A stretch of DNA of 9,543 bases from a virus (Duplodnaviria > Heunggongvirae > Uroviricota > Caudoviricetes): positions 1 to 9,543 of the IMG/VR virus record IMGVR_UViG_2695420728_000007; one strand, given 5' to 3'. A program made the translations under genes and the position numbers. The notes below the pieces were generated by a model, which saw nothing but the letters and a program-made list of their open reading frames with translations, searched no databases and was not told the origin of the DNA. Of this stretch, positions 6,518-7,238 are shown piece after piece; within the stretch, counting starts at the first letter, position 1; each line of letters opens with the position of its first letter.

Positions 6518-6871
6518 CTACCCCAGATGAGTAATCCGAAGTTCATCCATACCACAGGTCCTGGCTATTCTGTTGTACTCCTGAACAAGAGCAAATAATT
6601 CTGAATTAGCAACCATGAACTCATCGCAAACCCTCTGTATAGCATCACTATTCAGAATAATAACGTCTCTTCCCGAAAGACGATCAGGAGCACAGAACAA
6701 AACTGTCAAACGGCTGAAGGCCTTTGCTCGTGCTGCATTGACTATATCAATACGCTGCCTAAGGATGAAACACCCCGACGCCTCATCAATATTCACTCTA
6801 CCCACACCATATGAATGATAAATATTTAATGCTGAAAAAACCATTAGACCGTATAACAAACACTCAATCAA
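6518..6871 (-). CDS. Hypothetical protein (117 aa from TTG at 6871; 108 aa from ATG at 6844), first ORF of the cargo slot
   Basis: Protein-like composition (e.g. DEFMVANSELFALVQEYNRIARTCGMDEL). Neither start has a clear SD. 6 of 11 Arg codons are AGA/AGG and there are 3 AUA codons. No family recognised. Confidence 0.4.
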   Translation of the reverse strand: MIECLLYGLMVFSALNIYHSYGVGRVNIDEASGCFILRQRIDIVNAARAKAFSRLTVLFCAPDRLSGRDVIILNSDAIQRVCDEFMVANSELFALVQEYNRIARTCGMDELRITHLG

Positions 6872-6981
6872 TACTTAACAGAACTTTTATTTTTGACAAA
6901 CATATAATGTTTTCAACAATATCCTGAGCCAGGTATATTCCAGTATAAGGCTCTGCCGGAAGGAATCTGGAAGAATGAATA

Positions 6982-7058
6982 TGGCGCGCTGTACTGGATT
7001 CGAACCAGTGACCGATTGCTTAGAAGGCAATTGCTCTGTCCGGCTGAGCTAACAACGC
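6982..7058 (-). tRNA. tRNA-Arg (anticodon UCU)
   Basis: 77-nt cloverleaf folded by hand: 7-bp acceptor stem, D arm GCTC/GAGC, perfect anticodon stem ATTGC/GCAAT with loop CTTCTAA, T arm ACTGG/CCAGT with TTCGAAT loop, discriminator G, encoded CCA. Confidence 0.9.
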
Positions 7059-7162
7059 TGAATACCGATAATGGACCGCCATCGGGGACCCGCCCCCCCC
7101 CGCACCAACAACCCTGTTATCGTGTCGTCTGCTCTTCCTGATAAGCTCATGGCGGTTTGTGA

Positions 7163-7238
7163 TGGTGGCCCTTGCTGGATTTGAACCAGCGACCTGGCGA
7201 TTATGAGTCGCTCGCTCTCACCACTGAGCTAAAGGACC
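7163..7238 (-). tRNA. tRNA with CAU anticodon, most likely tRNA-Ile2 (lysidine type, ileX/ileZ-like) rather than tRNA-Met
   Basis: 76-nt cloverleaf: acceptor GGTCCTT / AAGGGCC, anticodon loop CTCATAA, T loop TTCAAAT, encoded CCA. The anticodon arm GCGACTCATAATCGC matches what I recall of E. coli tRNA-Ile2. Stx phages carry an ileZ tRNA at this position. Confidence 0.85.

Follow-up and report, generated by a model that had tools for sequence, protein, structure and literature searches.

The load of AGA, AGG and AUA codons in orf92, a small cargo gene of a lambdoid E. coli prophage, is probably a by-product of its AT-rich composition rather than a feature tuned to the two adjacent phage tRNA genes whose products are expected to read these codons. 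The cognate codons are not enriched beyond the expectation from base composition. Most likely, the tRNAs are of general use to the late and cargo genes. We consider an AT-rich cargo gene with composition-driven codons, next to tRNAs of general use, to be the likely explanation overall.

The window, by which we mean the whole 9,543-nt stretch of DNA that was analysed, is the late-regulatory (Q-to-lysis) region of the prophage and reads on the minus strand in the order Q, a pR'/tR' unit, ileZ, a decayed argN, argO, orf92, a DUF3927 gene, STnc100, nanS-p and the lysis genes (holin, lysozyme). The Q antiterminator gene (7382..8203, minus strand; 273 aa) was identified by matches to Pfam PF03589 (Antiterm, E=8e-55) and PHROG 127, and annotations of E. 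coli 042 and elppa4 label its equivalent an antitermination protein. A putative late promoter pR', read by eye at 7349..7376 on the minus strand (TTGATT, a 16 nt spacer, TAAATT), agrees with the consensus at 8/12 positions, which is under the threshold of our promoter scan, and is proposed as a candidate because it falls between Q and a terminator. This terminator, a tR'-like intrinsic element in the gap between Q and the tRNAs (7282..7301, minus strand), was found by a terminator scan and has a 7 bp stem with 5 GC pairs and the tail TTTTATTG. The same scan predicted no terminator between argO and orf92, and the first strong hairpin 3' of orf92 (6105-6126) lies beyond the DUF3927 gene and STnc100.

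The island that holds the cargo has a GC content of 0.32-0.42, compared with ~0.52-0.55 in its flanks. Downstream of orf92 on the minus strand are the gene for the DUF3927 small membrane protein (6351..6482; Pfam PF13064, E=1e-26), often the 3' neighbour of the orf92 family (it is also found in the homologous loci L008-L011, L013 and L014), and the STnc100 sRNA (6096..6285; Rfam RF02076, E=1e-29, with 132 bits where the gathering score is 47), the 3' end of which is the strong terminator-like hairpin just mentioned. An iraM-like anti-adaptor gene (5735..6070, plus strand; NCBIfam NF007393 at 162 bits, above its cutoff of 121, and annotated by PGAP) is convergent with these and is itself AT-rich (GC 0.35), with ATA at 6 of its 13 Ile codons. 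The downstream border of the cargo slot is a nanS-p type SASA esterase gene (3618..5489, minus strand; Pfam DUF1737, SASA and DUF6645), which also lies 3' of stx2AB in Stx2a_WGPS2. An Rfam scan over the ORF returned no RNA family; matches to Trp_leader (27 bits), Plastid-ycf2 (antisense of a tRNA) and sR55 were below their gathering scores and were dismissed.

The initial annotation had placed a tRNA-Arg(UCU) and a CAU tRNA resembling tRNA-Ile2 110-370 bp upstream of a 117-codon ORF and on its strand, and ARAGORN bears out both identities, with a measured distance of 111 to 367 nt from the TTG start of that ORF. The tRNA-Arg(UCU) gene (6982..7058, minus strand; Rfam 68 bits) is identical to argO of Stx2a_WGPS2 at 76/77 positions, and its product decodes AGA, plus AGG by wobble. 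The CAU tRNA gene (7163..7238, minus strand; Rfam tRNA 69 bits) is identical to ileZ of the same phage at 75/76 positions, the single change being C3 to T, which gives a U3.G70 pair specific to the window. Several lines of sequence evidence assign this tRNA isoleucine rather than methionine identity. Both C4-G69 and C5-G68, which we take to be TilS determinants, are present; the sequence is 67/76 identical to what we assume to be that of ileX but only 55/79 to the presumed metT; PGAP assigns the isotype tRNA-Ile, in closely related E. coli prophages, to a tRNA that is identical to ileZ and differs from that of the window by one base; and the equivalent CAU tRNA in NC_049941 is named ileZ. As a tRNA-Ile2, it would decode AUA after conversion of C34 to lysidine. 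Between the two genes, alignment to the Stx2-phage ileZ-argN-argO cluster revealed a decayed argN (UCG) at 7059..7162 (minus strand), which contains a G-run and has kept both ends while its middle has been replaced; ARAGORN found no tRNA over this interval and thus only two in the cluster, and argN is still intact in a few sister loci. The tRNA region as a whole is 86-88% identical over ~290 nt to many Stx2 phages.

The codon counts of the initial annotation agree with ours: the Arg codons of the 117-codon ORF are CGT (3), CGA (1), CGG (1), AGA (3) and AGG (3), so that AGA/AGG account for 6/11, and its Ile codons are ATT (7), ATC (1) and ATA (3), with ATA thus at 3/11. Taken together, AGA, AGG and ATA make up 7.7% of the 117-codon ORF and 8.7% (8/92) of the 92-codon core that we call orf92, compared with 0.49% in the host (70/14412 codons of 39 E. 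coli core genes) and 2.2% across nine core genes of the phage within the window (43/1992 codons). The frequency in orf92 is therefore ~17-fold, and that in the core phage genes ~4.5-fold, that of the host core. The enrichment that had been claimed for the ORF holds against the host core and, for AGA/AGG, against the core phage genes (Fisher P=0.002 overall, driven by AGA/AGG; P=0.02 for AGA/AGG among Arg codons), but not for ATA among Ile codons relative to the core phage genes of the window (P=0.28), and not against composition. The excess over host usage lies mainly in AGA, AGG and AUA rather than in CUA (0/9 Leu codons) or CCC, a point that speaks somewhat against composition as the sole cause, although the numbers are tiny.

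When Arg and Ile codons were drawn from the base frequencies of the ORF or of its flanks, the 9 rare codons observed in the 117-codon ORF compared with 8.4-8.5 +/- 2.3 expected (P=0.48-0.49), and the 8 observed in the 92-codon core with 7.1-7.4 +/- 2.2 (P=0.42-0.49 across the composition nulls). Moreover, AGA, AGG and ATA triplets occur 8 and 4 times in the two wrong frames, compared with 9 times in frame. Since AT-rich composition yields such a load in any frame, the codon match does not serve the purpose to which it had been put, namely to argue that the ORF is a real, co-expressed payload. Other AT-rich cargo of the slot carries 5.4-7.2% of these codons (pooled 5.6%; P=0.16 for the difference from the ORF), and a comparable load is found in iraM, AraC-like genes, a tolA-like gene and stx2A (7.2%). 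The simple AT bias that the initial annotation had set as grounds for refuting its reading is therefore present in essence: it is common to the AT-rich genes, but it does not extend to the core phage genes of normal GC content.

A specific benefit to orf92, in which the adjacent tRNAs decode and hence maintain or tolerate its rare codons and boost this payload as has been proposed for stx, seems unlikely to us. The arrangement itself is suggestive, since the tRNAs lie on the same strand at a spacing of 111-186 nt with no predicted terminator between, and they are found at a fixed distance from the ORF in 59/60 near-identical IMG/VR copies. Furthermore, stx2A in the equivalent slot uses ATA for 15/20 Ile and AGA/AGG for 8/24 Arg codons, and the copy of orf92 in the window has the highest load of its family (8.7% vs 3.8% in the pooled homologues; P=0.04, uncorrected, in a family of only ~seven independent lineages), its lineage being the only one directly behind argO(UCU). 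Against this stands a count that equals both the composition expectation and that of the wrong frames, together with the lack of ATA enrichment over the neighbouring phage genes. In addition, homologues in prophages or loci that lack ileZ/argO still contain 5.4-6.4% rare codons, as does an AraC-like gene adjoining one such homologue (5.4%); only one rare-codon position is shared with the 55%-identical homologue of L004, the only one compared codon by codon; and homologues located 3' of a tRNA-Thr(UGU) use ACA for just 1/7 Thr codons. The close linkage stems from one module that has scarcely diverged (13 alleles) rather than from a repeated association, and a related-locus search of viral contigs yielded near-identical copies and no further independent lineages. 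Finally, a survey of E. coli genomes places the tRNA cluster at 7597 sites (3061 genomes), about five times more than orf92 (1486 places in 1314 of 5426 complete E. coli genomes, or about a quarter). A small shift toward rare codons under the influence of the tRNAs may nevertheless have occurred, and is conceivable because of the highest load in the family, the fixed linkage and a cluster of three rare codons.

This cluster (AGA-AUA-GCC-AGG), which occupies codons 75, 76 and 78 in the 92-aa numbering and 100, 101 and 103 in that of the 117-codon ORF, is the basis of a second and more doubtful possibility, that ribosomes stall at rare codons near the 3' end of orf92 as long as the lysogen is uninduced, so that protein is made only after Q-dependent supply of the tRNAs. 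Three of the four codons in this run are rare, and tRNAs located behind a terminator are expected to need Q; a promoter-like site immediately 5' of the ORF (6916-6889, minus strand; 9/12 consensus positions) could provide transcription independent of the tRNAs. However, the scan that returned this site gave 6 matches in total where shuffling gives 5.3, placing such matches at the level of chance, and the cluster is not conserved, as L013 and L018 read EIASR at this position. The host argU and ileX/ileY tRNAs would also still decode AGA, AGG and AUA. Under this reading, five more rare codons elsewhere in the 92-codon message would help to keep output low, and read-through of tR' would supply both tRNAs from the transcript that also carries orf92. 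If true, such gating would couple translation of a cargo protein in the Shiga-toxin slot to induction, in the manner of a switch.

That the ORF is open merely by chance within AT-rich spacer DNA is very improbable and already largely refuted, since the blank left by PGAP at this position in all 36 sampled records at >=98.6% identity, the weak start signals of the 117-codon version and the lack of a Pfam or NCBIfam match are set against homologues of conserved length, as low as 33% in identity and with their own Shine-Dalgarno (SD) sequence and ATG, a dN/dS of 0.22-0.31 in frame vs 0.97-1.27 in the wrong frames (which hold 5-10 stops), the existence of PHROG 2873, a PGAP call of a 92-aa homologue in ETEC4079 (WP_001017777.1) and a confident AlphaFold2 model (pLDDT 90, from 11 sequences only). 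The distant homologues, the selection on the frame and the predicted fold thus argue that orf92 is a genuine gene, in line with the initial annotation, albeit on grounds other than its codons.

The extent of the gene is another matter, as the first 25 codons of the 117-codon ORF probably do not belong to the gene, which consists of the remaining 92. From comparison with the family, the true product is most likely the 92-aa protein initiated at GTG 6796 (6518..6796, minus strand; PHROG 2873, E=2e-69) and not at TTG 6871, leaving the 5' extension (6797..6871, minus strand) as a probable untranslated leader. Homologues of 91-95 aa, as low as 33% in identity, begin at the position aligned with GTG 6796, and an AGGAG Shine-Dalgarno sequence precedes this family start in L013 and L018. 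The extension is interrupted by a stop codon in L018, L008, L015 and L016 and lacks a counterpart in distant members. Within the lineage, polymorphisms are 6 synonymous and 2 nonsynonymous in orf92, compared with 1 synonymous and 4 nonsynonymous in the extension. SD pairing at TTG 6871 is weak (-0.4 kcal/mol); the start signals appeared weak because the longest ORF had been taken. Stops in the extension, dN/dS, SD energies and polymorphisms thus weigh against both the 117-codon TTG ORF and a 108-codon ATG ORF as the true gene, although either longer start may yet apply in the window's own lineage, where this copy and that of L004 are similar upstream of the GTG. Other annotators have used three start sites (giving 117/118, 108 and 92 aa).

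The orf92 product covers positions 1-108 of the PHROG 2873 profile and contains the family motifs AFSRLTVLFC.PDR and AN.EL..LV.EYN, with R23, V32, P37, N64, Y74 and N75 invariant in the family alignment. Scans of Pfam, NCBIfam and PADLOC with orf92 gave no match, and a sequence-profile search of the PDB gave nothing below E=0.6. A tblastn search of the phage collection returned a single record, mEp460_ev081, in which annotators had called a 38-aa ORF on the opposite strand. In the predicted structure of the protein, a beta-hairpin connects two long helices. A Foldseek search of the model against the PDB and BFVD retrieved generic helical hairpins, none at E<=1e-3; prefoldin beta, the EmrA hairpin, BAR domains and TraM were rejected as relatives for their non-significant scores, and we therefore infer no function for orf92. 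The best PDB matches were archaeal prefoldin chains, which resemble the model in topology (TM 0.71-0.73) but at a Foldseek E of 0.04-0.17, 10-17% identity and an rmsd >8 A, so that the likeness of the modelled fold to the prefoldin beta-subunit is that of a generic coiled-coil hairpin, and homology or a chaperone role is unsupported. A role as anti-activator of an AraC-like neighbour was also discarded, as the window has no such neighbour.

The locus is an unremarkable instance of an already familiar phage pattern, the ileZ/argO arrangement of Stx phages with other cargo. In Stx2 phages such as 933W and Stx2a_WGPS2, ileZ-argN-argO occupy the same place, between Q and the cargo slot/nanS-p and on the same strand, and the cargo directly after the tRNAs (stx2A) is rich in AUA and AGA/AGG, like orf92. 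The analogy to stx drawn in the initial annotation is thus well founded as to position, the ORF filling the stx slot with the tRNAs on one side and nanS-p on the other. The differences are that argN is intact in the Stx2 phages but decayed in the window, which therefore lacks the full set of three tRNAs; that the cargo is stx2AB there and orf92, DUF3927, STnc100 and iraM here; that the window has no methyltransferase gene between Q and the tRNAs; and that its Q is of a different type. A literature search on these tRNA genes and on rare-codon use in Stx phages found nothing relevant. More broadly, a low-GC insert between Q and the lysis cassette in late orientation is typical of lambdoid morons and lysogenic-conversion cargo, the content of which varies among related prophages (stx, AraC-like regulators, a tolA-like gene, iraM). 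A classical moron, however, has its own promoter and terminator, whereas the promoter-like site upstream of orf92 comes from a scan at chance level. Phage tRNAs reportedly offset differences in codon usage between phage and host, and the window fits this pattern with its elevated use of the cognate codons in both the core phage genes and orf92, except that the effect here is not specific to orf92, being explained by composition and common to AT-rich cargo.

These observations are consistent with a model in which orf92 would be horizontally acquired AT-rich cargo with codons that host preferences have not shaped, located behind a widespread phage module, ileZ/argO, that is far commoner than orf92 itself. 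Q-mediated read-through of tR' from the putative pR' would place the tRNAs and the downstream genes on one transcript. If functional, the additional tRNA-Ile2 and tRNA-Arg(UCU) would provide more of the scarcest tRNAs of the host for all late and cargo genes, and any benefit to orf92 would be a share of this general supply.

With respect to the relationship between tRNAs and codons, the locus therefore offers nothing new, as the ileZ/argO arrangement is familiar and the match stems from AT-rich composition. The useful by-product is one of annotation, namely a conserved 92-aa gene under purifying selection in the Shiga-toxin slot, carried by the 1314 genomes noted above, and prophage annotation would gain from a corrected start and a family entry. 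In non-Stx lambdoid prophages, orf92 is a reasonable candidate in the search for functions in lysogenic conversion or regulation.

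The window has the arrangement of a lambdoid late region, with its informative genes all on the minus strand. A DUF968/NinG-like gene (8587-9393) comes first in this order, followed by a RusA gene (8200-8577), the gene for a 273-aa Q antiterminator (7382-8203; Pfam Antiterm, E=8e-55), two tRNA genes (6982-7238), the ORF under study (6518-6871, 117 codons), a DUF3927 gene (6351-6482), a nanS-p type SASA esterase gene (3618-5489) and then genes for a P21-type holin, YdfR, lysozyme, Rz/Rz1 and an HNH endonuclease. A 61-aa ORF (1252-1437, minus strand) with a lipoprotein-like N-terminus (17 letters, not shown) lies in another frame inside the Rz-like gene (1163-1741, minus strand), which is what an Rz/Rz1 spanin pair would give, and an 86-codon ORF beside the HNH gene (483-743, plus strand) contains 8.1% AGA, AGG and ATA codons (hereafter, rare codons). 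The sole clear plus-strand gene encodes an iraM-like anti-adaptor (5735-6070) and is AT-rich cargo (GC 0.35, ATA for 6 of 13 Ile codons) on the strand opposite the late operon; in K-12, IraM belongs to a family of RssB inhibitors. The 1.9 kb around the ORF are 98.8% identical to prophages of many complete E. coli genomes, and the Stx2 phage Stx2a_WGPS2 carries stx2A and stx2B in the equivalent slot, with tRNAs upstream and nanS-p downstream.

ARAGORN called both tRNAs upstream of the ORF on the same strand, a tRNA-Arg(UCU) at 6982-7058 and a CAU tRNA at 7163-7238, and Rfam confirmed each as a tRNA. Each aligns with a single-base difference to its counterpart in Stx2 phages, argO and ileZ, respectively, and PGAP labels the equivalent CAU tRNA of closely related prophages, which is identical to ileZ, as tRNA-Ile; the initial annotation was therefore right to name the pair tRNA-Arg(UCU) and tRNA-Ile2. 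The base that differs from ileZ is a C-to-T change at tRNA position 3 (window position 7236), which makes this acceptor-stem pair a U3.G70 wobble; the five other ileZ copies compared (E. coli 042, elppa4, mEp460_ev081, Stx2a_WGPS2 and O178) have C3-G70. By sequence and position the pair belongs to the ileZ-argN-argO cluster of Stx phages, one member of which has decayed in the window: both ends of the 104-nt spacer between the tRNAs (7059-7162, minus strand) align to Stx-phage argN(UCG), and the unrelated middle contains a G-run whose length differs between the window and mEp460_ev081. The ileZ-argO spacing varies among sister loci, and argN is intact in a few of those in IMG/VR (L034, L037 and L063). 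One of 60 IMG/VR sister loci (L081) has a single CAU tRNA at the usual argO position (3741-3815), which could reflect either recombination or a miscall.

The codon counts first given for the ORF match ours exactly: six of its 11 Arg codons are AGA or AGG (three each, with CGT3, CGA1 and CGG1), and three Ile codons are ATA (with ATT7 and ATC1). Rare codons make up 7.7% of the ORF and 8.7% of its 92-codon core, orf92; the level in 39 E. coli 042 core genes (0.49% of 14,412 codons) is about 17-fold below that of the ORF, and nine core phage genes of the window have 2.2% (Fisher P=0.002). The difference from core phage genes holds for AGA/AGG among Arg codons (6/11 vs 28/135, P=0.02), with P=0.28 for ATA among Ile codons (3/11 vs 15/94). 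Thus, the proposed enrichment is real relative to the host and core phage genes. Other AT-rich cargo genes pooled have 5.6% rare codons (P=0.16 against the ORF). Single AT-rich cargo genes of this slot come close to the ORF as well: stx2A has 7.2% (ATA for 15 of 20 Ile, AGA/AGG for 8 of 24 Arg), two AraC-like genes 5.4% and 5.8%, a tolA-like gene 5.6% and iraM 5.4%. When the amino-acid sequence was held fixed and Arg and Ile codons were drawn from the base frequencies of the ORF (GC 42%), 8.4 +/- 2.3 rare codons were expected and 9 observed (P=0.48), in agreement with draws from flanking non-coding base frequencies (P=0.46-0.49). In addition, the same triplets occur 8 and 4 times out of frame in the ORF DNA, as compared with 9 in frame. 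Because of this null, the wrong-frame counts and the similar loads in AT-rich cargo, the enrichment is at the level of composition: the load is what AT-rich, unadapted DNA gives. It says nothing on whether the frame is translated, and the argument from codon match to a real gene is not supported.

Homologues of orf92 always occupy the same kind of place, with Q upstream and holin or nanS-p downstream. In many cases an AraC-like gene precedes them, and a TerB-like gene and DUF3927 come after; the accompanying tRNAs differ between loci. The window lineage, with ileZ and argO upstream, has the highest load of the family (8.7% vs 3.8% in pooled homologues, P=0.04 uncorrected, for one of roughly seven lineages). 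The P0014 lineage (locus L007) has ileZ and argN, no UCU tRNA, and 3.3% rare codons (count taken from contig L004, which is 98% identical); upstream tRNAs are absent from loci L013, L014 and L018 (5.4%, counted in L013 and L018) and L016 (6.4%). Upstream of distant homologues, some of them of Citrobacter type, tRNA-Thr(UGU) stands in place of ileZ/argO (3691-3766 in L008 and L009, 2595-2670 in L012, 5349-5421 in L015); rare codons amount to 1.1-3.2% (counted in L008, L012 and L015), and in copies behind this tRNA just 1 of 7 Thr codons is the cognate ACA. The L015 homologue is surrounded by a Pap-type fimbrial operon, not an obvious prophage. The window copy and the homologue at 55% identity have a single rare codon in the same position, AGA at codon 100. 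The HTH_18 AraC-family regulator gene (about 241 aa) immediately upstream of homologues in L004 (164-889), L013 (5142-5870) and L007 (6164-6889) itself has 5.4-5.8% rare codons and is absent from the window.

The ORF is a gene, as had been claimed, on grounds other than codon usage. It matches PHROG 2873 (E=2e-69), and searches of very large protein collections yielded a small family confined to Enterobacteriaceae (E. coli, Shigella, Citrobacter and Salmonella), whose members go down to 33% identity. Between four lineages dN/dS of the core is 0.22-0.31, compared with 0.97 and 1.27, and 5 and 10 stops, in the wrong frames of the same aligned DNA. The 78 near-identical copies in IMG/VR represent 13 alleles, with six synonymous and two nonsynonymous polymorphisms in the core (1, 1 and 6 by codon position), and AlphaFold2 predicts from an 11-sequence alignment a confident fold (pLDDT 90) of helix 3-33, beta-hairpin 39-46 and helix 50-81.

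The coding sequence most likely occupies 6518-6796, starting at GTG 6796, which explains the weak start signals initially noted. Distant homologues (91-95 aa) begin at the residue aligned to codon 26 of the longer frame (MNIDE...), with ATG or GTG behind a Shine-Dalgarno sequence (AGGAG in L013 and L018), and in L018, L008, L015 and L016 the 5' extension is untranslatable because of a stop codon 1-10 codons upstream of the family start. Moreover, PGAP annotates exactly the 92-aa form in strain ETEC4079 (WP_001017777.1), the 25-codon extension has one synonymous and four nonsynonymous polymorphisms, and predicted anti-Shine-Dalgarno pairing favors GTG 6796 (-5.3 kcal/mol) over ATG 6844 (-2.9) and TTG 6871 (-0.4), a weak discriminator given that 34% of background positions reach -4 kcal/mol. 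Gene callers disagree on the product (117/118, 108 and 92 aa), and longer forms may still be made in the window lineage since the upstream sequences of the window and L004 are similar.

Searches of Pfam, NCBIfam, PADLOC and PDB sequences returned no match to orf92, and fold searches with its model returned generic helical hairpins only (best prefoldin beta, E=0.04, TM 0.71, not significant). The coiled-coil hairpin shape of the model, and the regulators that recur next to the gene (AraC-like, PapB and GerE in the family, iraM in the window), tentatively suggest a small cytoplasmic protein-binding module.

A strong terminator-like hairpin (7282-7301, minus strand) lies between Q and the tRNAs, and the next such hairpin of the minus strand (6105-6126) lies past orf92, DUF3927 and STnc100. 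STnc100 is an sRNA (6096-6285, minus strand; Rfam score 132 bits against a gathering score of 47) that follows the DUF3927 gene directly, ends at the 6105-6126 hairpin and is convergent with iraM. The only other minus-strand terminator hit, at 6664-6682, was rejected as a terminator, being weak (3 G-C pairs), within the ORF and coding for conserved residues. A TTGATT-16-TAAATT element at 7349-7376 (8/12 consensus positions) is, from its position, a putative promoter. On the model of lambdoid late regions, RNA polymerase modified by Q would pass the 7282-7301 terminator and place the tRNAs and the cargo on one transcript. The phage copies of tRNA-Ile2 and tRNA-Arg(UCU) would thereby ease decoding where the host's capacity is scarcest, for every late and cargo gene; 43 rare codons lie in the nine core phage genes alone.

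A match between these tRNAs and rare codons of phage genes, stx among them, was reportedly noted in the 933W genome paper by Plunkett et al. (1999), and Bailly-Bechet et al. (2007) are said to have described the general principle of phage tRNAs matching codon usage. The tRNA-codon match is not specific to orf92, and the window is a further instance of this known pattern with different cargo. Counts over complete E. coli genomes put the tRNA cluster at 7597 places (3061 genomes) and the ORF at 1486 places (1314 of 5426 genomes). In IMG/VR, ileZ and argO stand at a fixed distance in 59 of 60 window-type copies, which are 97-99% identical and therefore represent a single young module, not a repeated association. 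PGAP places no annotation over the ORF in any of the 36 genomes sampled, all with at least 98.6% identity. That it misses, in all of these near-identical copies, a conserved gene for a 92-aa protein which occupies the stx slot in roughly one in four complete E. coli genomes is a mildly useful result.
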